The position numbers and the translations under genes were made by a program. Below, piece after piece: positions 5,060 through 33,962 of a stretch of DNA of 38,329 bases. Under the pieces are notes generated by a model that was given only the letters and a program-made list of their open reading frames with translations, was not told the DNA's origin and searched no databases. How positions within the stretch are numbered: position 1 is the stretch's first letter; every line of letters begins with the position of its first letter. The DNA comes from Eubacteriales bacterium. Its GTDB lineage: Bacteria; Bacillota; Clostridia; Oscillospirales; CAG-272. The stretch lies in assembly GCA_045612465.1 (NCBI GenBank), contig JAZKZC010000059.1, positions 1-38,329 of the forward strand, in the 5' to 3' direction.

Positions 5060-5127
5060 ATACAAGGCTGAAGCCTTGATTTTGGTAATATCTTGTGGTA
5101 TAATCTAACCGATAAATAAGAATTTGT
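5060..5127 (+). promoter_or_regulatory. Repeated promoter module, copy R1 (hairpin overlapping -35, extended -10, shared leader)
   Basis: atacaaggc-tgaa-gccTTGATT (-35 at 5076-5081), a 17-nt spacer, TGG-TATAAT (5099-5104), then ccgataaataagaatttg. Homologous modules occur at 22674-22744 and on the minus strand at 27889-27935. Confidence 0.6.
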
Positions 5128-5138
5128 AGAGGATATCA

Positions 5139-5918: not shown

Positions 5919-6022
5919 ATTCCAATTTCTCGGTGAGCTTGTTTTCTTGCCGTGCATTAAAAAACGAAAGTTATTTTGCCCGGAGCTATAGGTTGAAGAT
6001 TTTATACAAAAAGGAACTTATT

Positions 6023-13711: not shown

Positions 13712-15577
13712 TTGAATCAGAAATATAACGTTGACGGTATTTTACGAAAGGTTTTGAAGCCCGGCAGATATACGGGCGGTGAATACGGTCAGATAATAAA
13801 AAACAAAGAAAACGTAAAGTGCAGATTTGCTTTTGCGTTTCCCGACACTTACGAAATAGGAATGTCGAATCTCGGCGTGCGTATTCTTTACGGTGCGCTC
13901 AATGCAAACGAAAATATCTGGTGTGAGCGTGTGTATGCCCCGTGGATGGATATGCAGGAGCAGATGAAAAAACACGGTATACCGCTTTATGCGCACGAAA
14001 GTATGGACCCCGTTTCGGAATTTGACATTCTCGGCTTTACACTTCAGTACGAGCTTTGTTATTCAACCGTTTTGAATATGCTTGAGCTTTCAGGTATGCC
14101 GCTTTACGCAAAGGACAGAGGCGAGGAATATCCGATAGTCATTGGCGGAGGCCCCTGCGCTTACAATGCGGAGCCTGTTGCTGACTTTTTCGACGTTTTT
14201 TCGATAGGAGAGGGCGAAGAAGCGCTCGTTGAATTTTGTGAGCTTTACATTAAAATGAAAGAGTCGGGCGATTATACCAAAGAGAAGTTTTTGCATGAAG
14301 CGGCAAAAATCGAGGGATTTTACGTTCCGTCTTTGTATGACGTTTCATATAATGACGACGGCACGGTGAAAGAGTATACTCCGAAGTATGACGATATACC
14401 GACGAAAATACGTAAGCGCATAATCAAAGACCTTGATAAAACGTATTTTCCCGAGCAGTTTGTTATGCCGTACATCGAGACGGTGCACGACAGAATAGTA
14501 CTTGAGGTGTACCGCGGTTGTCCCAGAGGCTGCCGTTTCTGTCAGGCGGGTATGATATACCGCCCTGCACGCGCAAAGTCACCCGACGTGCTGAACCGCG
14601 ACGCAAAAACGCTTTACGAAAACACGGGATATGATGAAATTTCGCTTTGCTCGCTTTCAATTTCGGACTATCCGCATATAAGAGAGCTGACAGACAAGCT
14701 GCTTGACTGGACAGATGATAAAATGGTCGGTCTTTCGCTTCCGTCAATGAGAGCGGACAGCTTCTCGCGTGAGCTTATGAAAAGGGTGTCATCCGTCCGC
14801 GCATCGGGCCTTACGTTTGCACCCGAAGCGGGAACACAAAGACTGCGTGATGCAATAAACAAAAATATCTGCGAAAAGGATATATTTGAAGCGTGCCGCG
14901 CCGCATTCGAGGGCGGACGCAATCAGGTGAAGCTGTACTTTATGTGCGGACTTCCCACGGAAACCGACGAGGATATTTTAGGAATTGAAAAGCTTGCAAA
15001 GGCTGTTGTCGATGAATATTATCAGACAGAAAACAGACCTAAAGGACGTCCTACGGTTACAATAAGCGTTGCTTGCTTCATACCGAAGCCGTTTACTCCT
15101 TTCCAATGGGACAGACAGGCAACGATGGAGGAGCTTGTTGAAAAGCAGAAGCTTCTTGCTGATGCCATTACCGACAGAAGCATAAAGTATAACTACCACG
15201 ATGCAAACGTCAGCAGGATAGAGGCGGTGTTTGCAAGAGGTGACAGACGTTTGTCGAAAGCTCTTGCAAAGGCATCGGAATACGGATTTAAATTTGATGC
15301 GTGGGACGAATGCTTTGACTATGACAAATGGTTGTCAGTATTTGAAGAATGCGGCATCGACCCGTCATTCTATGCGAACCGTGAGTTTGGCGAGGACGAG
15401 GTACTGCCGTGGGATATTATCGACTGCGGTGTATCAAAGGAATTTTTCCTGCGTGAGCGTCACAAGGCATATAACGATACCGTTACGGAAAACTGTATGA
15501 AATCGTGTGCCGCCTGCGGCGCAAATAAATTGGGAGGTGAATGCACATGGTGTCCGTCAACGAATACGAAAAAGTAA
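13712..15577 (+). CDS. B12-binding-domain radical SAM protein of the TIGR03960 type (function unknown)
   Basis: Contains the CxxxCxxC cluster motif YRGCPRGCRFCQAG and an N-terminal FAFPDTYEIGMSNLG region typical of this family. I propose the in-frame TTG at 13712, downstream of GGAGAAG, as the start. The start is uncertain; the frame and stop are firm. Confidence 0.8.
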   Translation: MNQKYNVDGILRKVLKPGRYTGGEYGQIIKNKENVKCRFAFAFPDTYEIGMSNLGVRILYGALNANENIWCERVYAPWMDMQEQMKKHGIPLYAHESMDPVSEFDILGFTLQYELCYSTVLNMLELSGMPLYAKDRGEEYPIVIGGGPCAYNAEPVADFFDVFSIGEGEEALVEFCELYIKMKESGDYTKEKFLHEAAKIEGFYVPSLYDVSYNDDGTVKEYTPKYDDIPTKIRKRIIKDLDKTYFPEQFVMPYIETVHDRIVLEVYRGCPRGCRFCQAGMIYRPARAKSPDVLNRDAKTLYENTGYDEISLCSLSISDYPHIRELTDKLLDWTDDKMVGLSLPSMRADSFSRELMKRVSSVRASGLTFAPEAGTQRLRDAINKNICEKDIFEACRAAFEGGRNQVKLYFMCGLPTETDEDILGIEKLAKAVVDEYYQTENRPKGRPTVTISVACFIPKPFTPFQWDRQATMEELVEKQKLLADAITDRSIKYNYHDANVSRIEAVFARGDRRLSKALAKASEYGFKFDAWDECFDYDKWLSVFEECGIDPSFYANREFGEDEVLPWDIIDCGVSKEFFLRERHKAYNDTVTENCMKSCAACGANKLGGECTWCPSTNTKK

Positions 15578-16242
15578 GACTGGAATTTTCCAAAACGGGC
15601 AGGGCAAAGTTCATTTCCCACCTTGATTTGAACAGAACGCTCCGCACGGCGTTCGTGAGAGCAAAGGTGGCGATATGGTTCACAAACGGATTCAACCCCC
15701 ACCCGAAGCTCGTATTTTCGCTTCCGCTTTCTCTCGGCGCGGAAAGCGTGTGCGAATTTCTTGATATAAGAGTGCTTCCGCCCGTAGATTACGAGAAAAT
15801 AAAGGAAAGCCTCAATAATAATCTTCCCGAAGATATACAGATAAAGCGAGTGTATAAGCCGAAAACGAAGCTTGAAGATCTGTGCTGGTCAAGATACACG
15901 TTCAGACTTTGGTTTAACGGTATGTCAGCGGAAAAAGCAGATGAGATACGTGAAATGCTTGAAAATCCGATGATAATTACGAAGCGTACAAAGAAAACCA
16001 AAAGCGGTCTTACGGATATTGATATTTTACCCGGAATCAAATCAAGTGACGTCAGCTTTGACGGGGAATGCGTAAAGATAACCGCCGATCTTGAATCGAG
16101 TGTTGACAATTATATAAATCCCGATTATATCATCCGCGCGCTTGCGAAATACAAAAATATTGATTTTGAGCAAAACGGTGAATACTATACCGTTATGAAA
16201 GAAATAACGTTTCGCAAGGATTGCAAGAAAGTATTTGAGTGA
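15547..16242 (+). CDS. TIGR03936/DUF2344-type radical-SAM-associated protein
   Basis: RLEFSKTGRAKFISHLDLNRTLRTAFVRA is the typical N-terminus of this family, which is normally adjacent or fused to TIGR03960. ATG 15547 lies 9 nt after GGAGG. The gene overlaps the upstream gene by 31 nt. Confidence 0.85.
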   Translation: MVSVNEYEKVRLEFSKTGRAKFISHLDLNRTLRTAFVRAKVAIWFTNGFNPHPKLVFSLPLSLGAESVCEFLDIRVLPPVDYEKIKESLNNNLPEDIQIKRVYKPKTKLEDLCWSRYTFRLWFNGMSAEKADEIREMLENPMIITKRTKKTKSGLTDIDILPGIKSSDVSFDGECVKITADLESSVDNYINPDYIIRALAKYKNIDFEQNGEYYTVMKEITFRKDCKKVFE

Positions 16243-16293
16243 TTTTTTTGCCGTGTATCGGCAGAATAAAACAAATCACTATTGAGGAAAATA

Positions 16294-17739
16294 ATGAATA
16301 AAATAAATTACACGTTGCTTTGCGATTTTTATGAGCTTACGATGAGCAACGGCTATTTTGAAAACGGTATGAAGGACAAGACCGTTTATTTCGACGTATT
16401 TTTCCGCAGAGTGCCCGACGGCGGAGGCTTTGCCATCGCCGCAGGACTTGAGCAGGTGGTAGAATACATCAAAAATCTCCATTTTGATGAAGAAGACATT
16501 GCATTTTTGAAAAGCAAGGGCCTGTTTTCGGAATCATTTTTGGAATATCTGCGTACGTTCAGCTTCAAGGGCGACATCTGGGCAGTTCCCGAGGGAACTC
16601 CCGTGTTCCCGAGAGAGCCTATAATGATGGTGCGCGGTAATGCAATCGAAGCACAGCTTATTGAAACATTTGTACTTTTGTCGCTGAACCATCAGTCGCT
16701 TATAGCTACCAAGGCAAGCCGTATCGTGCGTGCCGCAGGAGGCAGAGCGGTGTCGGAATTCGGCTCACGCAGGGCTCAGGGCGCTGACGGCGCGGTGCTC
16801 GGAGCAAGAGCGTCGTATATTGCAGGATGTAACGGAACGGCGTGCGTGCTTGCGGACGAAGCGTACGGCGTGCCGTCAGGCGGTACAATGGCTCATTCGT
16901 GGGTGCAGATGTTTGACACGGAATACGAAGCGTTTGAAACGTACTGCAAAACGTACAGTAAAAATGCAACGCTTCTCGTTGATACGTACAACGTTTTGAA
17001 AAGCGGTGTACCTAATGCAATAAAAGCGTTTGATAACGTCTACGGTAAGGATAACAAAGAGGTATCGCTTGCCATAAGGCTTGACAGCGGCGACATTGCG
17101 TATCTTTCAAGAAAAGCAAGAAAGATGCTTGATGATGCGGGATACAGCCACTGTAAAATAGTTGCTTCGAATTCACTTGATGAATATATCATCAGAGATT
17201 TGCTTAATCAGGGAGCGAAAATTGACATTTTCGGCGTCGGTGAAAGACTTATAACGTCAAAAAGTGAGCCCGTGTTCGGCGGTGTTTACAAGCTTTCCGC
17301 TGTGGAAAACGATGACGGCGAAATAGTGCCGAGAATAAAAATAAGCGAAAACCCCGAAAAAATAACGCATCCGCACTTCAAAAAGCTGTATAGGCTTTAT
17401 GAAAATGAGAGCGGCAAGGCGGCGGCAGACCTTCTGTGCGTACACGATGAAAACCCGGATTTTACAAAGCCGTATGAGCTTTTTGATCCGGATTACACGT
17501 GGAAACGCAAGATTCTGACGGACTATACCGCAAAGGAACTCCAGGTGCGTATATTCGAAAACGGCAAGTGCGTGTACGACCTGCCCGATATAGAGGAAAT
17601 ACGCAAATACTGCAATTCCCAGCTTGAAACGCTCTGGGATGAGGTAACGCGTTTTGAAAATCCCCATAACTACTATGTTGACTTGTCGCAAAAGCTGTGG
17701 GACGTCAAAAAAGCATTACTTGACAAAAACGGTAAATAA
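16294..17739 (+). CDS. pncB: Nicotinate phosphoribosyltransferase
   Basis: LLCDFYELTMSNGYF...SEFGSRRAQG...GGTMAHSWVQ are typical NAPRTase motifs. Start at ATG 16294, after GAGGAAA. Confidence 0.9.
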   Translation: MNKINYTLLCDFYELTMSNGYFENGMKDKTVYFDVFFRRVPDGGGFAIAAGLEQVVEYIKNLHFDEEDIAFLKSKGLFSESFLEYLRTFSFKGDIWAVPEGTPVFPREPIMMVRGNAIEAQLIETFVLLSLNHQSLIATKASRIVRAAGGRAVSEFGSRRAQGADGAVLGARASYIAGCNGTACVLADEAYGVPSGGTMAHSWVQMFDTEYEAFETYCKTYSKNATLLVDTYNVLKSGVPNAIKAFDNVYGKDNKEVSLAIRLDSGDIAYLSRKARKMLDDAGYSHCKIVASNSLDEYIIRDLLNQGAKIDIFGVGERLITSKSEPVFGGVYKLSAVENDDGEIVPRIKISENPEKITHPHFKKLYRLYENESGKAAADLLCVHDENPDFTKPYELFDPDYTWKRKILTDYTAKELQVRIFENGKCVYDLPDIEEIRKYCNSQLETLWDEVTRFENPHNYYVDLSQKLWDVKKALLDKNGK

Positions 17740-17759
17740 TACGAAGGGAAGATGATGAA

Positions 17760-18419
17760 GTGGCTGAAGGACACAGAGAAAGAGTAAAAAGAAGATTTCT
17801 TTCCGAAGATCTTGATACCTTCGAAGCGCACAACGCCCTTGAATTTCTGCTGTTCTATGCGTTGCCGAGGATAGATACAAACGGTATTGCACACAGTCTT
17901 ATTGACAGATTCGGTTCTTTTTCCGAGGTGCTTGAAGCTCCTCTTGATGAACTTGCAAGCGTTGACGGAGTCGGCGAAAACGCGGCGATATTTCTGAAGC
18001 TTTTACATTCGACGGTAAGATATTATGAAAACGACGTCGGCAGACGTTCGCAGGAGTCGTTTGACAGCAAAGACGCAATAGGTAAATTTCTTATTGAAAA
18101 GTTCGCAGGAGAGGAAAACGAAAAGGTCATACTTTTGCTTCTTGATAATAAGGGCGGACTGATAGAAGCGAGGGTGCTTCACGAGGGTTCGGTAAATTCA
18201 TCCGCGGTAAACGTAAGGCGGATAACTGAAACTGCGCTTTTGAGCAGAGCATCGTCGGTTGTCATTGCACATAACCATCCGCGCGGTATCGCTTTCCCGT
18301 CGGCAGACGATATTTCGGTAACGGAAGCCATACGTCGCGCGCTTATGCTCGTTGACATAAATCTTCTTGACCATTATATCGTAGCGGGAAATAATTACAT
18401 CAGGCTGTCAGATACCTGA
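17760..18419 (+). CDS. radC: RadC-like JAB/MPN domain protein (UPF0758)
   Basis: The C-terminal JAMM-type motif VIAHNHPRG...PSADD and an N-terminal helix-hairpin-helix region (ELASVDGVGENAA) are present. GTG start. Confidence 0.85.
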   Translation: MAEGHRERVKRRFLSEDLDTFEAHNALEFLLFYALPRIDTNGIAHSLIDRFGSFSEVLEAPLDELASVDGVGENAAIFLKLLHSTVRYYENDVGRRSQESFDSKDAIGKFLIEKFAGEENEKVILLLLDNKGGLIEARVLHEGSVNSSAVNVRRITETALLSRASSVVIAHNHPRGIAFPSADDISVTEAIRRALMLVDINLLDHYIVAGNNYIRLSDT

Positions 18420-18487
18420 TGAAAATAAATATTTACGTGATAAAGGGTAATATTATTTATTAATAAAAATAAAACGGAGAGGGAAAA

Positions 18488-18793
18488 ATGGGAAATATTT
18501 TATTGACTGTTCCCGAATTTTGTTTCACGGACTGGCAGGTGTGTCTGCTCGGTATAGGAACGGTATTCGTGGGACTTATCGGTGTTATCATCGCTTGTAT
18601 GATAATGGGTGCCGTTATTCCGAAGAAAAAGGATGACGGTGTAAAAGAAAACGAAGCGCCCGCAGGCGTGCAGAAAGCATCGGACGAAATTCCCGACAGG
18701 GAGGAATTTGTAGCGGCGGTATCAGCCGCACTTGCGGAGTATATGGGAGAGGACATAAACTCCTTCAGAATCGTATCTATCAAGAAAATATAA
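18488..18793 (+). CDS. oadG: Sodium-pump decarboxylase gamma subunit (OadG family)
   Basis: 101 aa with a single N-terminal TM helix, then [16 protein letters not shown], typical of OadG-like anchors. It is the first gene of the decarboxylase cluster. Confidence 0.75.
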
Positions 18794-18806
18794 AGGGGAA
18801 TTAAAA

Positions 18807-19142
18807 ATGAGAACTTTCAGAGTAAACGTAAACGGAAACACATACGAAATACAGCTTGAGGAAATATCACCATCCGAAATCAAAAACACACCCGCACAGA
18901 AGCCTGCACCCGCATCACAGCCCACAGGCGGAAAAGCGGTAAATGCACCCATTGCAGGTACGATACTTTCTGTGAATGTGTCATCGGGAAGCACTGTCAA
19001 GGCAGGCGACGTTCTTATGGTGCTTGAAGCGATGAAAATGGAAAATGAGATATGCGCTCCCTGCGACGGAACAGTGTCATCGGTTGCCGTGAGCAAGGGT
19101 ATGTCGGTTGCCTCGGGCGCACTGCTTTGCACGATAGGTTAA
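18807..19142 (+). CDS. Stand-alone biotin carboxyl carrier (biotinyl/lipoyl domain) subunit
   Basis: 111 aa with the biotinylation motif [10 protein letters not shown] and a Pro/Ala-rich linker ([11 protein letters not shown]). Confidence 0.85.
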
Positions 19143-19154
19143 GGTGTAGAAAAT

Positions 19155-20336
19155 ATGGATGCGCTTTTGAATTTTGCTAAAACCACAGGTTTTTTCGGCA
19201 TATCCGAGAAGCCGTTGGTTCTTGTAATGTACGTTATTGCGGGACTTTTGATATATCTTGCAATAGTTAAAAAATTTGAACCGCTTTTGCTTTTGCCCAT
19301 TGCGTTCGGCATGCTTCTTACGAATCTGCCGGGGGCGGAGCTTTACCACCCCGAAATATTCATCAATGAAACGGGACATATAAATTGGGGTATGTTTAAA
19401 GAGGGTGCAGCAGGACTTATCGACTACCTTTACCTCGGTGTCAAGCTCGGTATTTTCCCGTGCATCATATTCATCGGTGTCGGTGCAATGACGGATTTTG
19501 CACCGCTTATCGCGAATCCCAAGTCGCTCCTTTTAGGCGCGGCAGCCCAGATGGGCATATTCGTAACTTATATATTTGCACGTGTTTCGGGTATATTCAC
19601 ACCCGAACAGGCAGGCTCTATCGGTATTATCGGCGGTGCTGACGGCCCCACGGCGATATACACGGCAACGAAAATGTCGCCTGAGCTTTTAGGTTCTATT
19701 GCTATTGCGGCATACTGCTACATGGCGCTCGTTCCGTTTATCCAGCCGCCTATTATGAAGCTCCTTACAACGAAAAAGGAGCGTATGATAGAGATGAAAC
19801 AGCTCCGCGACGTGTCGAAAACGGAAAAAATAGTTTTCCCCATTGTGATAACCGTGTTCGTGTCGCTTCTCGTTCCGTCAGCGGCGGCGCTCATCGGCTC
19901 GCTTATGCTCGGTAACCTGCTTCGTGAATGCGGTGTTACCGAAAGACTCAGCAAGACGGTTCAGAATGAGCTTATGAATATCGTTACCGTATTCCTCGGT
20001 GTGTCAGTCGGTGCTACCGCCACGGCAGAACGCTTCTTGAACGTCGAAACACTCGCAATACTTCTTATGGGTGTTATAGCATTTGCAATAGGCACGGGAA
20101 GCGGTGTTCTCCTTGCTAAATTTATGAATCTGTTTTCCAAGAACAAGATCAATCCCCTCATCGGTTCGGCGGGTGTTTCCGCTGTTCCTATGGCGGCGCG
20201 TGTTTCGCAGAAGGTCGGTCAGGAGGCAAACCCCTCAAACTTCCTGCTTATGCACGCAATGGGACCGAACGTTGCGGGTGTTATAGGCTCCGCTATCGCC
20301 GCAGGCGTTCTTTTGCAGATACCCAATATGTTTTAA
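19155..20336 (+). CDS. oadB: Na+-translocating decarboxylase beta subunit
   Basis: 393-aa polytopic membrane protein with conserved blocks GADGPTAIY and [15 protein letters not shown], typical of OadB/GcdB/MmdB. Confidence 0.9.
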
Positions 20337-20355
20337 TTTGAAAGGGGTATAAAAT

Positions 20356-21771
20356 ATGGCTAAAAATCCGTTAAAAATAACAGATACCATACTTCGCGAT
20401 GCGCACCAGTCGCAAGCCGCAACGCGAATGAAAATAGAGGATATGCTCCCCGCTTGCGAGGTGCTTGACAAAATAGGCTTTTATTCGCTTGAATGCTGGG
20501 GCGGTGCGACGTTTGATTCCTGTATGCGCTTCTTGAATGAAGACCCGTGGGAAAGACTCCGCACACTTCGCAAGGCTCTGCCGAATACGAAGCTGCAGAT
20601 GCTTCTGCGCGGACAGAATCTGCTCGGCTATAAGCACTACGCCGACGATACGGTTGAAGCTTTTGTCAAAAAGTCAATCGAAAACGGTATTGATATAATC
20701 AGAATATTCGATGCGCTCAACGATATAAGAAATATCGAAGCGGCAATGAAATTCACAAAGCAGTACGGCGGTACGGTCGAGGCGGCGATAAGCTATACTA
20801 CGAGCCCCGTCCACAGCCACGAGTATTTTGTTGACCTTGCATGCCGTCTTGAGGAAAAGGGCGCAGATATAATCTGTATCAAGGATATGGCAAACCTGCT
20901 TTTGCCCTACGATGCGTATTCACTCGTAAAGGCTCTGAAAGAAAAAATATCAGTTCCGATACACTTGCATACGCATAATACGTCCGGTACGGGCGACATG
21001 ACGTATCTTATGGCGGCAATGGCAGGCGTTGATATAGTTGACACGGCGCTTTCTCCGCTTGCAAACGGCACGTCACAGCCTGCGACGGAGTCGCTTGTTG
21101 CAACGATGGCATCGACGGAGCGTGACACGGGACTCAGTCTTGAGCTTTTGAGTAATGCCGCGTCGCATTTCAGAGGCGTTGCGAAGAAGCTGAAGGAAAG
21201 CGGTTCGCTTGACCCCAAGGTGCTGAACGTTGACACAAACACGCTTTTGTATCAGGTTCCCGGCGGTATGCTTTCAAATCTTATCTCCCAGCTCAAGCAG
21301 GCAAATGCCGAAGATAAATATTACGAGGTTCTTGCGGAAATCCCCCGTGTGAGAAAGGATTTCGGTTATCCTCCGCTTGTAACGCCGACGAGCCAGATCG
21401 TAGGCTCGCAGTCCGTTCTCAACGTGCTTTCGGGCGAAAGATATAAGGTGTTCACCAAAGAGTCAAAGGGACTTTTAAAGGGTGAATACGGAAAGCTTCC
21501 GGGTGAGGTTAATGAGGAAGTACGTAAAAAGGCAATAGGTGATGAAGAAGTCATAACCTGCCGTCCTGCTGACCTTATCGCACCGGAGCTTGATAAGTAC
21601 AAAGAAGAAGCAAAGGAAATGGCAAAGTGCGAGGAGGACGTGCTTTCCTATGCGCTTTTCCCCAAGGTTGCAACGGATTTCTTTGAAAAAAGAGGAAAAA
21701 CGTCGAACACGGAGAACGAAGCGAAAAAAGATACAATAAGAGAAATATTCGTTCAAGATGTTTCTATATAA
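20356..21771 (+). CDS. oadA: Oxaloacetate decarboxylase alpha subunit, carboxyltransferase part only (HMGL-like + PYC_OADA, no biotinyl domain)
   Basis: ITDTILRDAHQSQAATRM...ECWGGATFD...IKDMANLL...HLHTHNTSG match the OadA / pyruvate carboxylase B carboxyltransferase domain. The protein ends without an AMKM motif. Confidence 0.9.
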   Translation: MAKNPLKITDTILRDAHQSQAATRMKIEDMLPACEVLDKIGFYSLECWGGATFDSCMRFLNEDPWERLRTLRKALPNTKLQMLLRGQNLLGYKHYADDTVEAFVKKSIENGIDIIRIFDALNDIRNIEAAMKFTKQYGGTVEAAISYTTSPVHSHEYFVDLACRLEEKGADIICIKDMANLLLPYDAYSLVKALKEKISVPIHLHTHNTSGTGDMTYLMAAMAGVDIVDTALSPLANGTSQPATESLVATMASTERDTGLSLELLSNAASHFRGVAKKLKESGSLDPKVLNVDTNTLLYQVPGGMLSNLISQLKQANAEDKYYEVLAEIPRVRKDFGYPPLVTPTSQIVGSQSVLNVLSGERYKVFTKESKGLLKGEYGKLPGEVNEEVRKKAIGDEEVITCRPADLIAPELDKYKEEAKEMAKCEEDVLSYALFPKVATDFFEKRGKTSNTENEAKKDTIREIFVQDVSI

Positions 21772-21774
21772 TAG

Positions 21775-21800
21775 TAAAGACAACCGAAAGGTTGTCTTTA
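21775..21800 (+). terminator. Rho-independent terminator of the decarboxylase cluster
   Basis: taaagacaacc-gaaa-ggttgtcttta lies directly after the stop codon. Confidence 0.7.
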
Positions 21801-21821
21801 CTGATTTTACAGGAGAAAAAA

Positions 21822-22259
21822 ATGAGATTCAGAGATAAACTTATAAGATTTATGTATGGCAGATACGGATACGACAAACTTTCGTTTTTTATGTTCTGCG
21901 TGTATTTTTCGGTTTTTGTTGTCAGGATGTTTCTTGCGTTCTCATCGTCAAAAACGGTGCAGATAATTTCGCTGTCGCTTTTGTTTTTCAGCTTTGCATT
22001 GCTTGCGCTTATAATTTTCAGATTTCTTTCGAAAAATATATATGCACGTCAAAGGGAAAATGCGGTGTATCTTAAGCTGTCAAAACCCGTCGGTGAATTT
22101 TTCAAAAGAACCTTTAACCGCGTAAAATATATAAAAACGCACCGTTACCGCAAATGTCCTCACTGTAAAAGTTTTTTGCGCTTGCCGAGAAAAAAAGGGA
22201 AACACACGGTCTTGTGCCCGCGTTGTAAGAAAAACTTTGACGTCAATATCATAATATAA
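21822..22259 (+). CDS. Membrane protein with C-terminal zinc-ribbon (CxxC...CxxC), function unknown
   Basis: Start at ATG 21822, after AGGAG. It has two TM helices, then CPHCKSFLRLPRKKGKHTVLCPRCKKNF. Confidence 0.65.
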   Translation: MRFRDKLIRFMYGRYGYDKLSFFMFCVYFSVFVVRMFLAFSSSKTVQIISLSLLFFSFALLALIIFRFLSKNIYARQRENAVYLKLSKPVGEFFKRTFNRVKYIKTHRYRKCPHCKSFLRLPRKKGKHTVLCPRCKKNFDVNIII

Positions 22260-22309
22260 CGGTTAAAACGGTTGAATATCAAAAAAAAATATTTTTTTTG
22301 AAAAAACTC

Positions 22310-22338
22310 TTGATTTTTTCGATTTGTTGTGATATAAT
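22310..22338 (+). promoter_or_regulatory. Sigma-A promoter of tRNA-Ser with upstream A/T tract
   Basis: TTGATT (22310-22315), a 17-nt spacer, then TG-a-TATAAT (22333-22338). It is preceded by an A9-TA-T8 tract (UP-element-like). It strongly resembles module R2 at 22690-22718. Confidence 0.6.
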
Positions 22339-22359
22339 ACACGAGTATTCAACCGATAT

Positions 22360-22450
22360 GGAGAAGTCGCCTAGTTGGTCGAGGGCGCACGACTGGAAAT
22401 CGTGTAACCGGTAAAACGGTTCCAGAGTTCGAATCTCTGCTTCTCCGCCA
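22360..22450 (+). tRNA. tRNA-Ser (anticodon GGA), long variable arm, CCA encoded
   Basis: Hand-folded cloverleaf:
- acceptor GGAGAAG/CTTCTCC
- anticodon stem-loop CACGA-CTGGAAA-TCGTG
- variable arm AACCG-GTAAAA-CGGTT
- T arm CAGAG-TTCGAAT-CTCTG. Confidence 0.9.
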
Positions 22451-22452
22451 AC

Positions 22453-22492
22453 AAAAAACGCACTTTTGTCTACTGACAAAGGTGCGTTTTTT
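22453..22492 (+). terminator. Rho-independent terminator of tRNA-Ser
   Basis: aaaaaacgcacttttgtc-tact-gacaaaggtgcgtttttt forms a long stem followed by a T-run. Confidence 0.8.
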
Positions 22493-22493
22493 G

Positions 22494-22667
22494 AATGATG
22501 TTTGCCTGTCACGCAAATGATGTTGGCTTCGCCAATGATGACGGCTTCGCCTAATGATGTGTGCCTGTGGGCACATAGGGACAAACAGCGCATCATTGCG
22601 GAATGAAGTGGAACAACATCATATTTGCGAAGCAAATGCATCATATCGCCGCAGGCGATGCATCATT
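22494..22667. repeat. Heptamer/hairpin array A: 4x AATGATG then 4x CATCAT(T), separated by short hairpins of differing sequence
   Basis: AATGATG occurs at 22494, 22516, 22534 and 22553. CATCAT(T) occurs at 22591, 22617, 22639 and 22661. Hairpins lie at 22501-22517, 22523-22535, 22560-22575, 22623-22637 and 22645-22659. Confidence 0.7.
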
Positions 22668-22673
22668 GAAGAC

Positions 22674-22744
22674 ATACAAGGCTTACGCCTTGATTTGTTT
22701 ACGATAGTGTGATATAATAAACTCACTGATAAATAAGAATTTGA
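22674..22744 (+). promoter_or_regulatory. Repeated promoter module, copy R2
   Basis: atacaaggc-ttac-gccTTGATT (-35 at 22690-22695), a 17-nt spacer, TG-a-TATAAT (22713-22718), then ctgataaataagaatttg, the same leader as R1. Confidence 0.6.
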
Positions 22745-22799
22745 CGAACTGTTCACAAGACTTGAATTGTTGAGAATATACTATTCTGAGGAGGATAAA

Positions 22800-23321
22800 A
22801 TGAAAACGATTGTGATTTATAATTCACAGACTGGATTTACAAAAAAATATGCTCAGTGGATAGCAGAAAAAGCACATGCAGATTGCATTGAGTACAGTAA
22901 AGCTAAAAATGCAGATATAGATAGCTATGATGCCGTAGTTTTTGGCGGCTGGGCTGTAGCTGGTTCAATAAGCAAACTCAAATGGTTTAAGAAAAATCTT
23001 TTGAGATGGAAGGATAAGAAACTGGTGGCTTTTTGTGTTGGCGCAAGTCCTATTGAGAACCCTGAAATTGAACTGACATTACCTAAAAACTTCTCAGAAG
23101 AAGAACTTAAAATAGTAAGATGGTTCTATTGCCCTGGTGGTCTTGATTACGAAAAGATGCCTGCCACATCAAAGGCAATGATGAAAATGTTTGTCAAGGT
23201 TTTGAAAGCCAAGAAAGATAAGACACAGGCTGATATTGAACAGATAAAAATGATGTCATCATCATATGATATTTCAAATATAAAATATATCGAACCGATA
23301 ATTGACTATCTTAATGGCTAA
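22800..23321 (+). CDS. Flavodoxin-like domain protein (Flavodoxin_5/HemG-like)
   Basis: Start at ATG 22800, after GAGGAGGA. MKTIVIYNSQTGFTKKYAQWIAEK is a typical FMN-binding flavodoxin N-terminus, and the sequence continues ...DAVVFGGW. AT-rich and CpG-poor. Confidence 0.85.
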   Translation: MKTIVIYNSQTGFTKKYAQWIAEKAHADCIEYSKAKNADIDSYDAVVFGGWAVAGSISKLKWFKKNLLRWKDKKLVAFCVGASPIENPEIELTLPKNFSEEELKIVRWFYCPGGLDYEKMPATSKAMMKMFVKVLKAKKDKTQADIEQIKMMSSSYDISNIKYIEPIIDYLNG

Positions 23322-23451
23322 ATACTTGTTTGTTCACAAGCAAAGCGGCTTGAGATTAACAAATTCCAATTTATCGAATGGGAACACTTGGTGTACTTTT
23401 AGTCGTTCTTACCTGCATTTACGCACCGTTTGTGCGCTTCTTCGCAGCGAA

Positions 23452-23480
23452 AGGAGCAAGTCATATGACTTGCTCTTTTT
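23452..23480 (+). terminator. Rho-independent terminator after the flavodoxin-like gene
   Basis: gagcaagtca-ta-tgacttgctc followed by ttttt. Confidence 0.75.
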
Positions 23481-23486
23481 GCAACT

Positions 23487-23632
23487 AAATCCACCCTTGC
23501 GGGTGGGTGAAATCATCTTCGATGATGAAATTCCCCACGGAAATGAAATCTGCCTCGACGGCGAATGGGTGGATTTAATTTCATCTGAAGCCGCAGGCTG
23601 AAGATTTCATCCGAATAAAGTGAGGATTTCAT
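23487..23632. repeat. Heptamer/hairpin array B: 3x RTGAAAT then 3x ATTTCAT with interleaved hairpins; inverted homologue of array C
   Basis: RTGAAAT occurs at 23507, 23525 and 23543. ATTTCAT occurs at 23578, 23604 and 23626. Hairpins include ccaccc-ttgc-gggtgg (23491-23506), catc-ttc-gatg (23514-23524) and tcc-ccac-gga (23532-23541). There is also a 10-bp long-range pair, aaatccaccc (23487) / gggtggattt (23567). Confidence 0.75.
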
Positions 23633-23677
23633 TTAATATACATGTCATATCTTAATTTATGATTATATTAAAAGATA

Positions 23678-23707
23678 TTGACATTTATTATATATTTATG
23701 ATATAAT
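23678..23707 (+). promoter_or_regulatory. Candidate sigma-A promoter of putP
   Basis: TTGACA (23678-23683), then TATAAT (23702-23707) after an 18-nt spacer. Confidence 0.5.
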
Positions 23708-23741
23708 ATACTATATTTAATTTCAATATGGAGGAAAAAAG

Positions 23742-25304
23742 ATGAATGACAAAATTCAAATTCTGATTGCAATGGTCATATATATGGCTGCAGTCATTAT
23801 GATCGGTGTATTCTGCGCAAAGCGTGCAAATAAAAATTCCGAAGCATATTTTCTCGGCGGACGTTCACTCGGCCCGTGGGTAACAGCAATGAGCGCTGAA
23901 GCATCCGATATGAGCGGTTGGCTTCTTATGGGCTTGCCCGGCGTCGCTTATTGGTGCGGTCTTGCCGATGCGGCATGGACGGCAATAGGTCTTGCGGTAG
24001 GTACATATCTTAACTGGCTTATCGTATCAAAGCGTTTAAGACGCTACAGTGTGAGGGCAAACAATTCCATCACGCTTCCCGATTTCTTTTCAAACCGTTT
24101 CAGAGAAAACAAGAAGCACATAATGCTCCTTTCCGCTGCATTTATACTTATATTCTTTACTGTATATGCGGCAAGCTGTTTTGTAACGTGCGGCAAGCTT
24201 TTCTCAACGCTGTTCGGTATGCCTTATCAGGCAATGCTTATTGTAGGCGCGGTATTCGTTCTTATTTACACGATACTCGGCGGTTTCTTGGCTGAAAGTA
24301 TTTCAGACTTTATGCAGGCTATCGTTATGATAGTTGCTCTTACCGTTATCGTTATAATCGGTATAGTTAACGCAGGCGGTATCGGCGCAATCGTCGAAAA
24401 CGCAAAGGCTATCCCCGGATTTTTCGAATTTTTCGGTCTTGCAACACCCGTTGTTGACGAAGCCGGCACACAGATTCTTGAAGCAGGTAAGCCTGTATTC
24501 GGAAACGCTGACGATTACGATGTTCTGAATATTTGCTCGATGATGGCGTGGGGTCTTGGTTACTTCGGTATGCCTCAGGTGCTTTTGCGCTTTATGGCTA
24601 TCCGTAAGGAAGAAGAACTCAAGCGTTCACGCAGAATTGCTATTGTATGGGTAGTTATCTCTCTTGCGGTTGCGGTGTTCATCGGTATCGTCGGACGTCA
24701 GCTGTTCCCCGATGCGCTTCTGACGAAGTCTGCGGCTGAAAGCATATTCATAACAATGGCAGAATCTTACTTGCCCCCCATTCTTGCAGGATTTGTAATG
24801 GCGGGAATTCTGGCGGCAACTATCAGCTCGTCCGACTCATATCTCTTGATTGCGGCATCTGCTTTTTCAAAGAATGTTTTCCAGGGCGTATTCAAGAAAA
24901 ATGCAAGCGACAAGCAGGTTATGAACGTTTCACGTATCACACTTCTTGCTCTTACTGCTATCGGTATTATCATAGCGCTTGATGAAAACAGCGTTATCTT
25001 TGATATAGTATCGTTTGCGTGGGCAGGATTCGGCGCAACATTCGGCCCGATAATGATATTCTCCCTTTTCTGGAAGCGTGTCAATAAGCCCGGTGCTGTT
25101 GCAGGTATGATAAGCGGTGCGGCAATGGTATTCTTCTGGAAGCTCGTGCTCAGCAAGATCGGCGGAGTATTCGCAATTTATGAGCTTCTTCCCGCGTTTA
25201 TATTCTCATCAATTTGCATCGTCGTCGTTTCGCTTCTTACAAAGGCTCCCTCGAAGGAGATCGAAGAAGATTTCGAGGCTGTACGCGCAGGCAAATGCGA
25301 ATAA
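23742..25304 (+). CDS. putP: Sodium/proline symporter (SSS family)
   Basis: 520 aa with about 13 TM segments. The N-terminal block YFLGGRSLGPWVTAMSAEASDMSGWLLMGLPG is characteristic of PutP. Confidence 0.9.
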   Translation: MNDKIQILIAMVIYMAAVIMIGVFCAKRANKNSEAYFLGGRSLGPWVTAMSAEASDMSGWLLMGLPGVAYWCGLADAAWTAIGLAVGTYLNWLIVSKRLRRYSVRANNSITLPDFFSNRFRENKKHIMLLSAAFILIFFTVYAASCFVTCGKLFSTLFGMPYQAMLIVGAVFVLIYTILGGFLAESISDFMQAIVMIVALTVIVIIGIVNAGGIGAIVENAKAIPGFFEFFGLATPVVDEAGTQILEAGKPVFGNADDYDVLNICSMMAWGLGYFGMPQVLLRFMAIRKEEELKRSRRIAIVWVVISLAVAVFIGIVGRQLFPDALLTKSAAESIFITMAESYLPPILAGFVMAGILAATISSSDSYLLIAASAFSKNVFQGVFKKNASDKQVMNVSRITLLALTAIGIIIALDENSVIFDIVSFAWAGFGATFGPIMIFSLFWKRVNKPGAVAGMISGAAMVFFWKLVLSKIGGVFAIYELLPAFIFSSICIVVVSLLTKAPSKEIEEDFEAVRAGKCE

Positions 25305-25450
25305 TTTAAAATATAATTTCAGCAGGAAACATTGTTTTCCTGCTGATTTTATGTTTTAGCGAATAATATTATCCCCGATAGACAAAAATCTGTCGGGGGT
25401 TTGACATTTTGGAAGTTGTATGGTAGAATAAAATCAAGGCGGTGAAATGT

Positions 25451-26986
25451 ATGAATAATAAAAAATTTCTCGGAATTGAATTCGGCTCAACAAGAATAAA
25501 GGCTGTCGCACTCGATTCCGAATATAAACCCGCATCAAGCGGTGATTACACGTGGGCAAGCTCATACGAAAACGGCATCTGGACATACGATGTTTCCAAG
25601 GTCTGGGACGGTCTTAAAACAGCACTGTCACAGATACAGGGCAGGGAAGATGTTTGTTATATGGGACTTTCGGGTATGATGCACGGATATCTCGTTTTTG
25701 ATGAGGATTGGAATTTACTCGTGCCTTTCAGAACGTGGCAGAATACGATAACAGCACCTGCGGCATATGAGCTTACAGAGCTTTTTAATTTCAATATTCC
25801 GCAAAGATGGTCGATAGCTCACTTGTATCAGGCTGTTTTGAACGGTGAGGAGCACGTTTCAAGGGTAGCGCACATAACAAGTCTTGCGGGGTACGTTCAC
25901 TATATGCTGACGGGTGTCAATGCCGTCGGTATAGGTGAGGCGTCGGGCATGTTTCCCGTGGACACCGAAAAGCTCTGCTATGATGAAAAAATGGTCGAAA
26001 AATTCAACAAGCTTGCAGAGGAAAAAAAGATACCGTGGAATCTTACGGATGTTTTGCCGAAGATACTCGTTGCGGGCGACAACGCAGGATATCTTACAAA
26101 AGAGGGCAGTAAGATGATAGACGGACTGTTGCCTGCGGGAATTCCGTTTGCGCCTCCCGAGGGCGACGGCGGCACGGGAATGATCGCAACGAATGCGGTA
26201 GCGCCGAGAACGGGAAATGTTTCGGCAGGTACGTCCATTTTTGCAATGGTCGTTATGGAAAAACCGCTTGAAAATGTGTATGAGGAAATAGATATTATCA
26301 CAACTCCAAGCGGAAAGAACGTCGCAATGGTTCACGGCAACAACTGCACTACGGATTCAAATGCGTGGGTATCTGTTTTGAAAGAATCCGCAGAACTGCT
26401 TGGGGCGAACGCTTCAAACGGCGACGTATATACGAAGCTTTACGAAAAATCGCTTGATGGTGATGCTGACTGCGGCGGTGTGCTTGTTTGTAATTACCTT
26501 GCGGGAGAGGTCATAACTCATATTGAAAACGGGCGTCCTTTGGTTGTGCGCCGTCCCGACAGTAAGTTTACACTTGCAAACTTTTTCAGATCTATTCTCT
26601 ATTCCACAATGGCGACATTGAAGCTCGGAATGGACATTCTTGAAAAGGAAGATGTAAAAATCGATTCTATGACAGGCCACGGCGGACTTTTCAAAACGCC
26701 AAAGGTCGGACAAACTTATATGTCGTGCGTGTGCTCGGGCGCACCTATAACCTGTATGAAAACGGCAGGAGAGGGCGGCCCTTACGGTATGGCACTTCTT
26801 GCCGCATACGCTTCTGATAAAGAAGACGGCGAAACACTTGAGGAGTATTTGAATAACCGTGTATTCAAGGATGCCGAGAGTGTAACCGTCAAAGCAAGCG
26901 ACGAGGATATCGACGGCTTTGGTAAATATATGGAAGAATATAAAAAGATGCTAAAGGTAGAACGCACAGCATCTGAAATGATTTAA
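25451..26986 (+). CDS. FGGY-family carbohydrate kinase (xylulokinase-like; substrate not assignable)
   Basis: Start at ATG 25451, 8 nt after AAGGCGG. LGIEFGSTRIKAV is the phosphate-1 motif of the sugar-kinase/actin fold, and a GHGGLF block lies near the C-terminus. Confidence 0.85.
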   Translation: MNNKKFLGIEFGSTRIKAVALDSEYKPASSGDYTWASSYENGIWTYDVSKVWDGLKTALSQIQGREDVCYMGLSGMMHGYLVFDEDWNLLVPFRTWQNTITAPAAYELTELFNFNIPQRWSIAHLYQAVLNGEEHVSRVAHITSLAGYVHYMLTGVNAVGIGEASGMFPVDTEKLCYDEKMVEKFNKLAEEKKIPWNLTDVLPKILVAGDNAGYLTKEGSKMIDGLLPAGIPFAPPEGDGGTGMIATNAVAPRTGNVSAGTSIFAMVVMEKPLENVYEEIDIITTPSGKNVAMVHGNNCTTDSNAWVSVLKESAELLGANASNGDVYTKLYEKSLDGDADCGGVLVCNYLAGEVITHIENGRPLVVRRPDSKFTLANFFRSILYSTMATLKLGMDILEKEDVKIDSMTGHGGLFKTPKVGQTYMSCVCSGAPITCMKTAGEGGPYGMALLAAYASDKEDGETLEEYLNNRVFKDAESVTVKASDEDIDGFGKYMEEYKKMLKVERTASEMI

Positions 26987-26990
26987 ACAA

Positions 26991-27018
26991 AAAAGGAACA
27001 CTGTGAGGTGTTCCTTTT
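26991..27018. terminator. Hairpin terminator (A-run/T-run flanked) after the kinase gene
   Basis: aaaaggaacac-tgtgag-gtgttcctttt. Confidence 0.75.
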
Positions 27019-27189
27019 GAATTTAACCGACATTTATTCGCAAAACGGTATTTTGTCTTCCTCGTTCTTTGCAGGATTTTGTTTAATACCCAACTGTGTT
27101 TTCGTAAATTGTCAATACTCAACATGATATTAATTTTAATATTTAGAGCCTGTATATACTCGGTATTTAAATGATGATCAAGCATGACA

Positions 27190-27762
27190 CTAATTACTGT
27201 CTGCAATGCGAAGACCGTGCATTTTTGCGGCGTACTTTAATTCGTACACTGTATCTGTTTCGCTTGCCTTTGATATACTGATCAACTCTTTTTTTGCTTC
27301 CTCTACAGAAGTGTAAAAACCGAGTAAGGTCTTTTTATTCATTCCGAGAATACCTTTTGAAATGCCGTAAAGTGCACATACCGGTATTCTCACTTTTTCA
27401 TTAGGCTTGGTTGCTCCTGAAATTAAAGTGGCTTCACCTTTGCCGTCGCTGACCATTTCGATTAAAAATTCTTCAAATGTCGACAGCTTTCTTTTGTTGA
27501 TATCAATAATATACAGTTTTTTATTGGTGTGAATACTTTGTTGGGCGGGTTGATCGAAGCTTGTTTCTTCACCTTTAACAAGATAATCGGTTGAGACTTT
27601 AAACAGTTCACTTATAAGTACAAGCTTCTCAATGTCTGGGGTACTGGCTCCGCTTTCCCATTTTGATACCGCCTGCCGGGATACTTCTAATTTTTCTGCA
27701 AGCTGTTCTTGGGACAATCCGTTACTTTTTCGTAACTGTTGAATTTTTACAGAAATACTCAT
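27190..27762 (-). CDS. XRE-family HTH transcriptional regulator with an uncharacterised ~110-aa C-terminal domain
   Basis: Start at ATG 27762, directly after AAAGGAGG. IQQLRKSNGLSQEQLAEKLEVSRQAVSKWESGASTPDIEKLVLISELFKVSTDYL is a canonical HTH_3 domain. AT-rich. The ORF-track start at 27909 lies upstream of the predicted promoter. Confidence 0.85.
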   Translation of the reverse strand: MSISVKIQQLRKSNGLSQEQLAEKLEVSRQAVSKWESGASTPDIEKLVLISELFKVSTDYLVKGEETSFDQPAQQSIHTNKKLYIIDINKRKLSTFEEFLIEMVSDGKGEATLISGATKPNEKVRIPVCALYGISKGILGMNKKTLLGFYTSVEEAKKELISISKASETDTVYELKYAAKMHGLRIADSN

Positions 27763-27888
27763 AATAAATCCTCCTTTGGGATTACTGCAGAAACATTTTA
27801 ACATATGATTAGCATAAAGTCTACCATTTGAGCGTGGAATAACGGCAACTGACGGTTGCATTTCGGTCGTGCTGTCGGAGTTTGTGAA

Positions 27889-27935
27889 TTTATACCATAT
27901 TTCTGCCAATAAATCAAGGTGCCTTGTATATCATC
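27889..27935 (-). promoter_or_regulatory. Repeated promoter module, copy R3 (minus strand)
   Basis: The minus strand reads gatgatatacaaggca-ccTTGATT (-35 = 27912-27917), a 17-nt spacer, then TGG-TATAAA (27889-27894). It is homologous to R1 and R2 but lacks their gataaataagaattt leader. Confidence 0.55.
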
Positions 27936-27957
27936 GCCACTTGTTGCAGTATTTTTT

Positions 27958-28085
27958 GTGAAATATTCGGCGATGCCGAATGTGAAATTAAATCCACCCA
28001 TCCGCCTTCGAGGCGGATTTCACCCAACGAAGTTGGATTTCATCGTCGAAGACGATTTCACCCACCCGCAAGGGTGGATTTAATT
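27958..28085. repeat. Heptamer/hairpin array C (inverted copy of array B)
   Basis: On the + strand, GTGAAAT occurs at 27958 and 27982, and ATTTCAC/T at 28017, 28037 and 28055. Hairpins:
- attcggc-gat-gccgaat (27965-27981)
- tccgcct-tcg-aggcgga (28001-28017)
- ccaac-gaa-gttgg (28024-28036)
- cgtc-gaa-gacg (28044-28054)
- ccaccc-gcaa-gggtgg (28062-28077). Confidence 0.75.
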
Positions 28086-28086
28086 G

Positions 28087-28118
28087 AAAAACAGACTTGT
28101 CGAAACAAGTCGGTTTTT
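28087..28118 (-). terminator. Rho-independent terminator of the tRNA-Thr/Tyr operon
   Basis: The minus strand reads aaaaaccgacttgt-ttcg-acaagtctgttttt followed by T-rich sequence. Confidence 0.75.
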
Positions 28119-33847: not shown

Positions 33848-33962
33848 TTGTAATTCTCCTGCCGTGTCGGAAATCGTTGACACGGTCTGTTTTGCATATT
33901 TTCGGCCGGAGCGTTTTCAGCTCCAGCCGATTTGTTTTGAATTTTACGGGGTGAAACGGAGA

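Follow-up and report, generated by a model that had tools for sequence, protein, structure and literature searches.

What places a single foreign gene behind a tRNA gene, and what bounds it there? The question is raised by a 38,329-nt stretch of DNA from a Clostridia bacterium (GenBank assembly GCA_045612465.1, contig JAZKZC010000059.1; hereafter the window), in which a tRNA-Ser gene is followed by a terminator, a hairpin array (array A), a promoter, a flavodoxin-like gene, a conserved tail motif, a second terminator and a second array (array B). This order had been proposed from the letters alone, by what we call here the sequence-only reading, together with the idea of a cassette system whose enzyme is encoded elsewhere; the order was borne out, and no such enzyme is encoded nearby. 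Our analysis adds two things: a 22-nt boundary site, widespread and strand-specific, that goes with mobile cargo genes in gut Clostridia, and a setting in the genome for the Gut-1 RNA motif. Already known were tRNA-side integrase-less islets, cassette systems and the Gut-1 family itself. With a confidence only a little better than even, we lean towards a two-layer, tRNA-proximal cargo hotspot in which cassettes would be exchanged in trans at short sites and platform sequences.

An inverted pair of boundary sites

The flavodoxin gene sits between an inverted pair of sites of ~18-22 nt, one after the -10 box of its promoter and the other after its stop codon. The surrounding elements are given here with reference to L252, the locus of a congeneric genome.

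22360-22450, + strand: tRNA-Ser(GGA) gene (ARAGORN; Rfam tRNA, 56 bits), whose last base is the left edge of the indel
22451-23435, + strand: indel block of 985 bp, absent from L252, comprising terminator 1, array A, promoter, cassette and a 57-nt tail
22452-22493, + strand: intrinsic terminator 1, a 19-bp stem then a T run, supplied to the tRNA by the block
22494-22667, + strand: array A, four short palindromes linked by AATGATG, then four linked by CATCAT(T)
22674-22719, + strand: hairpin promoter platform, hairpin CAAGGCttacGCCTTG over the -35 box TTGATT, then extended -10 TGTGATATAAT
22728-22745, + strand: 5' (leader) boundary site GATAAATAAGAATTTGAC, an inverted copy of the 3' site, starting 9 nt past the -10 box
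22800-23321, + strand: flavodoxin-like cargo open reading frame (ORF) of 173 aa (Pfam Flavodoxin_5 PF12724, E = 5e-19)
23358-23378, + strand: 3' (tail) boundary site AACAAATTCCAATTTATCGAA, with 0 matches in 100 shuffles
23447-23482, + strand: terminator 2, an inverted repeat that directly follows tRNA-Ser in L252
23482 to about 23640, + strand: array B, the Gut-1 motif (23482-23554) then an inverted half with ATTTCAT linkers

The leader forms a 16-nt inverted repeat with positions 23360-23375 of the tail, in which 14 of 16 base pairs are possible, and the leader motif has three matches in the window against 0.05 expected. In a mobile insertion cassette, or a miniature inverted-repeat transposable element (MITE) with a passenger, terminal inverted repeats of a known insertion sequence flank the gene and a target-site duplication is present. 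Inverted repeats are present here; no direct duplication surrounds the repeats in the window, L006 or L224, and no transposase with matching ends was found. The tail motif, listed by the sequence-only reading as a mere element, is present and proved to be the most informative boundary feature of the locus.

The 3' site has the consensus YAAATTCCAATTTRTCGRNCWG and stands immediately past the stop codon, and the 5' site reads CGAYAAAT-NNG-AATTT at the predicted transcript start. A metagenome scan with YAAATTCCAATTTRTCG returned at least 120 loci, with 119 distinct sites among the matches listed. The 3' site lies -3 to +25 nt past a same-strand stop codon in 47 of these 119, against three in the reverse arrangement, before a start codon; a further 25 fall within long ORFs and are probably chance matches. 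No strict match was found in 1 Mb of control loci from relatives. The genes that bear the 3' site after their stop codon in gut metagenomes, again among the matches listed, are unrelated to each other; the site is followed by a terminator or else by the next gene with its ribosome-binding site. Conservation runs ~5 nt further outward (RNCWG), with hardly any on the gene side. The upstream partners take the form CGAYAAAT-(AAG/CGG/TGG)-AATTT. On one strand, 24 pairs of a 5' and a 3' site were found, most of them separated by 450-1700 nt; in 18 of these the upstream Y and the downstream R covary. Since the 5' site begins 6-20 nt past the -10 box in eight unrelated promoters, it would form the transcript start; the -10 box and leader of the window are found also in L006 and L020.

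Other identities for the motif were considered and dropped. Boxes for CodY, Spo0A and LexA (Cheo) gave no consistent fit, and a chromosomal dif-type site was set aside as the arms are unlike the pdif sites of PMC13141974. Our literature search found no earlier description of the boundary motif or of integron-like cassettes in Firmicutes. Two loci, L120 (672-791) and L133 (366-818), hold two to four boundary-type sites within 100-450 bp of one another and no intervening gene, and may represent cassette positions that are empty or have collapsed.

Homology between loci breaks at the sites

Comparison of site-bearing loci reveals that their homology begins or ends at the sites. L011 and L029 have a common phage peptide-deformylase gene upstream of the 5' site and different genes after it; L011 and L013 have the downstream gene in common and differ upstream. 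Homology also starts or stops at a site in L034/L152, L135/L227, L202/L215, L174/L180 and L118/L121, and breakpoints coincide with sites in at least eight locus pairs. L205 and L224 are 97-98% identical in both flanks and hold different content between two sites: in L224 (6598-8288, - strand) the genes for PNP_UDP_1 and for a streptomycin adenylyltransferase (PF04439, E = 2e-112), and in L205 (4273-7142) genes for a tyrosine recombinase, a Y2 transposase of the IS91 family and a DUF3784 protein. The segment of L205 that resembles an insertion sequence (IS) begins inside the 5' site; a link to IS91 targeting was dropped, its basis being this one IS91-family element. The arrays L001 and L029 each combine a single 5' site with several sites of the 3' type, hybrids among them, such as AACAAATTC-T-GAATTTGAC between flavodoxin and hydrolase genes. 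The sites mark homology breakpoints and one cassette replacement between conserved flanks, and we infer that breakage and joining occur at the sites themselves rather than elsewhere.

A separate observation concerns L139 (129-160) and L221 (reverse strand). In L221 a ~600-bp GC-rich lipoprotein-like gene is inserted exactly between the 3' site (…ATTTATCG) and GAACTG, and L139 is the empty state of this insertion, ahead of the next gene.

The flavodoxin gene itself was found in five unrelated contexts. Its homologues, with 76-95% amino-acid identity, occur in an operon, in an element resembling an integrative and conjugative element (ICE) and in an integrative and mobilizable element (IME). DNA homology to the operon, L001, which consists of helix-turn-helix (HTH), ICMT, flavodoxin and hydrolase genes, covers only 22764-23366 (91%) and ends inside the tail motif; homology to the ICE-like element, L002-L005, covers only 22764-23378 (82%) and ends at the edge of the tail motif. 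A weaker copy of the site pair flanks the gene in the ICE-like element. The gene is also cargo of an integrase/Mob_Pre IME, where the sites are degenerate, and stands after a MarR gene and after an APH gene, where they are absent. L247 (5449-7942) carries hydrolase, CAAX protease (75% identity) and flavodoxin genes side by side, in an array without boundary sites.

The left side of the window is a mosaic. Through TGTGATATAAT it matches the platform of L253, a relative with other cargo at the same tRNA; from the -10 box on (TGTGATATAATaaactcacYGATAAATAAGAATTTGA) it matches the cargo promoters of L006 and of the prophage fragment L020. These alignments place the left boundary of the foreign DNA proper at the -10 box and leader motif and its right boundary at the tail motif, arrays excluded.

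Searches of collections added little to this picture. Exact-protein look-ups of the flavodoxin (two alternative starts included) and of the symporter encoded beyond array B gave no record, the locus had no match in a plasmid collection, and a PHROGs scan placed the cargo genes in no known phage family. In a phage collection the locus gave a single 40-nt match, to L006. This locus (1-1440) is GenBank MT836745, labelled Bacteriophage sp., and looks bacterial because an RNase Y-like gene is present. Its order is a tRNA end, a terminator and hairpin array, a partial tRNA 3' end, a promoter, a GNAT cassette with both sites, and a terminator and array again; the array is of a third type, with hairpins flanked by CGTT/AACG.

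Cargo variation behind tRNA genes

Relatives are uncultured Oscillospiraceae/Acutalibacteraceae-type Clostridia from animal guts, and close ones were located via OadA similarity. The sequence-only reading had called for a comparison of strains, which revealed that the locus is not invariant. L252 (GCA_045652135.1; OadA 97% aa identity, ~86% DNA identity) is colinear with the window over 13988-27025 and has the order tRNA-Ser, the window's terminator 2, Gut-1 array and symporter. By blastn, 16283-22450 matches L252 4930-11094 and 23436-25358 matches L252 11083-13029; homology thus stops at the last tRNA base and resumes at 23436, so that 22451-23435 is an indel starting exactly at the tRNA end, its sole coding gene being the flavodoxin-like ORF. 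In a more distant relative, L050, the symporter directly follows tRNA-Ser(GGA). In L253 (GCA_045545665.1; OadA 90% identity) the same tRNA-Ser is followed by different cargo between two Gut-1-type arrays. First come a terminator, a Gut-1-like array and a promoter, which precede an unrelated 128-aa gene; next are a terminator and a Gut-1 array, and last a geneless hairpin promoter. The tRNA-Tyr locus differs likewise, with an XRE gene in the window and, in L252, tRNA end, terminator, array A, promoter and four other genes. The indel, the L253 cargo and the difference at tRNA-Tyr support a tRNA-side cargo hotspot with swapping between relatives. The proposal of a cassette hotspot after the tRNA therefore stands; its second part, that the arrays are the crossover points and exchange boundaries, is not supported by the comparisons made, in which no junction lies inside any array; array A falls within the indel and has host-like composition.

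A genome scan based on the sodium:solute symporter gave L050, L058 and L085, the best relatives being only 87% identical and synteny not kept. The symporter directly follows a tRNA of varying identity in L037, L047, L050, L053, L061 and L066, and follows tRNA- or array-linked cargo in L058 and L085; its upstream flank therefore looks like a recurrent hotspot.

The claim that the same logic recurs at two other tRNA loci of the window also holds, though only one of the units has both boundary sites.

5063-5937, + strand: tRNA-Glu unit, with hairpin promoter, 5' site at 5111-5128, CAAX protease gene at 5139-5918 and 3' site from 5916
27190-28118, - strand: tRNA-Tyr unit, with terminator, Gut-1 array at 28012-28086, hairpin promoter and XRE gene at 27190-27762

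In the tRNA-Glu unit the TAA of the 3' site is the CAAX stop codon. The hairpin promoter of the XRE unit lies at about 27890-27926 (- strand).

By eye, the cargo gene had been judged AT-richer and poorer in CpG than its neighbors, and computation agrees, with z between -3.5 and -5.5. Measured against the 22 other genes of the window, the flavodoxin gene has a GC content of 0.351 versus 0.457 +/- 0.031 (z = -3.5), third-position GC (GC3) of 0.316 versus 0.490 (z = -5.5) and a CpG observed/expected ratio of 0.45 versus 1.47 (z = -5.4); NCG codons make up 1.1% of the gene versus 8.2%. The CpG depletion is limited to 22800-23300, and the CpG content of arrays and promoter is host-like. The CAAX protease and XRE genes deviate in the same way (GC3 z = -4.9 for the CAAX unit). 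These data support a compositionally foreign origin of the cargo gene.

The rest of the window encodes housekeeping and cellulosome-type proteins (dockerins, SpoVAD, an oxaloacetate decarboxylase operon, EF-G). Two large secreted proteins, 364-4458 (-) and 31664-33883 (-), combine type I dockerin with GDPD or ricin-lectin domains, so that the organism probably builds a cellulosome, like Ruminococcus. A 17-nt stretch just past the zinc-ribbon stop codon (22257-22273, TAACGGTTAAAACGGTT) is 88% like the variable arm of tRNA-Ser (22405-22421), a likeness that may be chance.

Could this be an ordinary variable intergenic region beside a tRNA, in which a gene was lost in relatives, the motif likeness stems from common descent and the composition is peculiar to the gene? 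We consider this very improbable. Speaking for it are the unproven polarity of the indel, the variability that tRNA flanks have in general and the absence of the sites from some homologues. However, all three tRNA-adjacent genes of the window have the same foreign composition, the 3' site follows dozens of unrelated genes, the same gene occurs in an IME, an ICE-like element and different operons, and the breakpoints described above coincide with sites. An ordinary locus is already largely contradicted by these observations.

Recombination sites or RNA ends

In the two-layer hotspot that we favor, the first layer would be a lineage-resident platform directly after the tRNA: terminator, hairpin array of Gut-1 type and a sigma-70-type promoter that faces outward. 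The second would be a promoterless foreign gene cassette between the inverted ~18-22-nt sites. Prophages, ICEs and IMEs would deliver the cassettes, with the same site pair bounding cargo in prophages and in chromosomal arrays of gut Clostridia, and recombination at these short sites and at conserved sequences of the platform (tRNA, -10 box, arrays) would insert the cassettes or exchange them. The functions needed would act in trans, as they must if the block, which holds no integrase or transfer genes, is to move. Candidates for the enzyme would be a site-specific recombinase, Xer-like from the host or of another kind; short-homology recombination of phage type might also serve. By analogy, the inverted layout and the dyad form that the site takes, GAYAAATT-CC-AATTTRTC, recall the Xer-dependent dif modules of Acinetobacter, the sequence itself being unlike pdif. 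That these features amount to an undescribed cassette-exchange system in gut Clostridia, with promoterless genes between inverted ~22-nt dyad sites of this core, a site-specific recombinase in trans that carries them between prophages, ICEs/IMEs and the chromosome, and platforms of Gut-1-type arrays with an outward promoter after tRNAs, is a doubtful proposition that we put forward only tentatively.

The site pair may alternatively work in RNA. With its 5' member at the start of the mRNA and the complementary 3' member past the stop codon, it would clamp the transcript against RNase J-type attack at the 5' end and 3' exonucleases, and the shuffling of modules would be a by-product of homologous or relaxed recombination, the sites being all that unrelated cassettes have in common. 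The placement of the 5' site just behind the -10 box in eight unrelated promoters agrees with such a device, as do a 3' site that is strictly strand-specific to the gene and precedes the terminator, the 14 of 16 possible base pairs, and a Y/R position that is Watson-Crick or G-U compatible in 22 of 23 pairs (counted by eye). No recombinase is linked to the sites. On the other hand, the commonest promoter-proximal variant (center AAG) leaves two central mismatches against TCC where the complementary form would be TGG, the arrays L001 and L029 have one 5' site for several 3' sites, and the hybrid sites within arrays resemble crossover products. Taken together, a clamp is a serious contender for explaining the pair, although not the explanation we would choose.

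A number of observations weigh against exchange at recombining sites in a tRNA-side hotspot. Some concern the enzyme: none of the 29 window ORFs belongs to a recombinase or transposase family in Pfam scans, in agreement with the sequence-only claim that no recombinase is in sight, and a Pfam census of 150 ORFs from 20 site-bearing loci found no recombinase family enriched. Others concern the sites. Only the outer arm of each is well conserved, which is unusual for a two-arm recombinase site; the insert that distinguishes L221 from L139 abuts the right edge of the site and not its center; and on its left side the foreign DNA of the window joins at the -10 box, a shared regulatory sequence rather than a site, which suits the RNA clamp. 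The XRE unit at tRNA-Tyr lacks the leader and tail motifs, and several flavodoxin and CAAX homologues (L241, L246, L247) lack the sites. The cargo of L205 and L224 could have been exchanged by plain homologous recombination in the conserved flanks. Finally, that the window gained the block, rather than L252 having lost it, is an inferred and unproven polarity, and an att-like repeat of the tRNA end was dropped. The 12-nt overlap of the two blastn matches had hinted at such a repeat at the right junction, where the best candidate matches 10 of 14 bases; as 10% of shuffles reach this score, and 6% of 60-nt window stretches do, it was not counted.

The platform: hairpin promoters, arrays and Gut-1

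The cargo promoter is of sigma-70 type (TTGATT, 17 nt, TATAAT at 22690-22718; 10 of 12 positions plus TG in a promoter scan), and hairpin 22677-22692 covers its -35 box. The hairpin promoter of 22674-22719 has further copies at window position 5063 and, on the minus strand near XRE, at about 27915-27926, and the geneless copy in L253 (12083-12127) is 89% identical to it. The cargo promoter (22689-22722) is also a 74% copy of the tRNA-Ser gene's own promoter (22309-22342), both reading CTTGATTT...TGTGATATAATA; the platform promoter is thus of the same type as the tRNA promoter. No promoter was found between terminator and array in the same kind of scan.

Both arrays fold strongly as single strands. 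Array A has a folding z of -5.6, with 0 of 200 shuffles folding as well, and array B a z of -4.6. The first half of array B (23482-23554) is a member of a family already on record, matching Rfam Gut-1 (RF01706) at 62.3 bits against a gathering threshold of 50. A second copy (28012-28086), just 3' of tRNA-Tyr, scores 79.4 bits, and copies in relatives score 58-65 bits, among them L252 11130-11202 at 65 bits. Array B is therefore resident, since L252 has it too. Alignment to the model gives three hairpins joined by conserved GUGAAAU linkers, and an alignment of six copies has compensatory change in 4 of 16 pairs. The arrays of the window share this likeness with the family and differ in that Gut-1 here makes up the leading half of a longer array with two arms. 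The original account of 2010 drew solely on fragments from human gut metagenomes and gave neither context nor function (Weinberg et al. 2010, PMC2864571), and we found no later work on Gut-1 or RF01706. The present loci provide its genomic setting: the motif forms one arm of such an array, with the terminator of a tRNA gene on one side and a cargo promoter on the other.

Array A falls in none of the Rfam families; its architecture is that of Gut-1 with another linker (AAUGAUG). Copies follow tRNA terminators in L058, where two membrane-protein genes come next, and in L252, and a scan of viral contigs for array A gave no match. The three copies have a mean column identity of 83%, with the second half nearly invariant; they follow three different tRNAs in three genomes and are ~83-90% identical, coding DNA being ~85% identical. 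Heptamers recur each 18-26 nt, in direct and then inverted orientation.

Such regularity raises the prospect that the arrays are themselves recombination substrates, the units being miniature integrase-less elements that insert at tRNA 3' ends. The heptamers, at ~20-bp spacing, would be arm-type sites, or the hairpins would serve as single-stranded DNA (ssDNA) substrates for an integrase or HUH enzyme encoded elsewhere, with accretion in tandem as for cis-mobilizable elements (CIMEs). We regard both forms of this reading as unlikely, and as weaker than the RNA clamp. It would account for an indel that is a whole unit starting at the tRNA end, for two units in tandem in L253, for the terminator and array on both sides of the cargo unit in L006 with a partial tRNA 3' end between, for array A after three different tRNAs and for the regular heptamers with their change of orientation. 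Yet none of the junctions fell within an array, the direct repeat at them does not reach significance, and the arrays are host-like in composition where the cargo is not. The same array type also stands beside different tRNAs, which is unexpected for one integrase core specificity, and the palindromes between the heptamers vary with compensatory change, a pattern more in keeping with a folded single strand than with arm sites for a protein.

Comparison with known cassette systems

The tRNA-side unit resembles a CIME in several respects: it lies at a tRNA 3' end, lacks integrase and transfer genes, occurs in tandem (L253) and has variable cargo. CIMEs and their tandem accretion are defined in PMC5704250. 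The present unit differs in being only ~1 kb with a single gene and in having no significant attL/attR repeat; a Gut-1-type array, an outward promoter and short sites belonging to the cargo are not CIME features. The left limit of L252 homology (22450) is the 3' end of tRNA-Ser, as in a CIME or tRNA-integrated islet.

To our knowledge, no integron-like mechanism is known from the dominant spore-forming anaerobes of the gut. The layout of the locus would be of integron type as far as the sequence goes, with a promoter (22690-22718) upstream of site and gene. The likeness lies in the platform promoter, the site, the promoterless gene with a site after its stop codon, the same-orientation arrays L001 and L029, and the hybrid sites. 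Integron attC sites are imperfect palindromes of 57-141 bp with R''/L''-L'/R' cores (GTTRRRY). In contrast, the sites described here are ~22 nt and AT-rich, with no GTTRRRY or conserved partner core and no attC-type folding; no IntI gene accompanies them, neither intI nor Phage_integrase being found in the 29 window ORFs. Moreover, the 5' site repeats the 3' site in inverted orientation, and the sites occur in Clostridia, in prophages, in an ICE-like element and beside tRNAs. Nor is this an IS200/IS605 system, since Pfam scans found no TnpA/TnpB family in the window and Rfam no omega-RNA or HEARO-type match. The earlier statement that the locus belongs to neither group is thus upheld on Pfam, Rfam and sequence grounds.

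A parallel in layout is offered by the dif modules found on Rep_3 plasmids of Acinetobacter, which rely on XerC/XerD and have inverted dyad sites; dif sites are 28 bp, with XerC and XerD arms around a 6-bp spacer (PMC13141974). Both systems have small modules with inversely oriented short dyad sites and no dedicated recombinase nearby, the dif enzyme being a housekeeping one. In both, one module can take the place of another at a fixed position (here L205 versus L224), hybrid sites lie between neighboring modules, and resistance genes are among the cargo. The differences are that our site is unlike pdif (e.g. ATTTCGTATAA-N6-TTATGTTAAAT), that only one arm is well conserved, that orientation does not alternate in arrays, and that the contexts are chromosomal, phage or ICE-like, in Clostridia. 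Set against the pdif list, the site has no XerD-type arm (TTATGTTAAAT), and only TTCGATAA is loosely like a XerC arm; a role for Xer would be one of analogy.

Mobile regulatory cassettes and boundary sequences of phages, such as T4-type promoter stem-loops and those of lambdoid phages, mediate module shuffling. Our sites resemble them as short conserved regulatory sequences at breakpoints, with the -10 box forming one junction of the window. They differ in being an inverted pair round a gene, in extending beyond phages and in having their 3' member past the stop codon.

Significance

If the sites are true recombination sites, dominant spore-forming anaerobes of the animal and human gut would possess a cassette system. 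At a locus whose cargo varies among strains, a streptomycin adenylyltransferase gene already lies between such sites, and the 22-nt site, used as a search key, would let cassettes and hotspots be catalogued in metagenomes. Should their action be in RNA instead, mobile genes would carry a portable clamp for the ends of their mRNA, which would also be new. Whatever the mechanism, Gut-1, an orphan since 2010, gains a defined setting in which its function becomes testable. Should the cassette-exchange reading be true, this would be the first biological context for Gut-1, and gut anaerobes would have an integron- or dif-module-like route for the acquisition of accessory and resistance genes.

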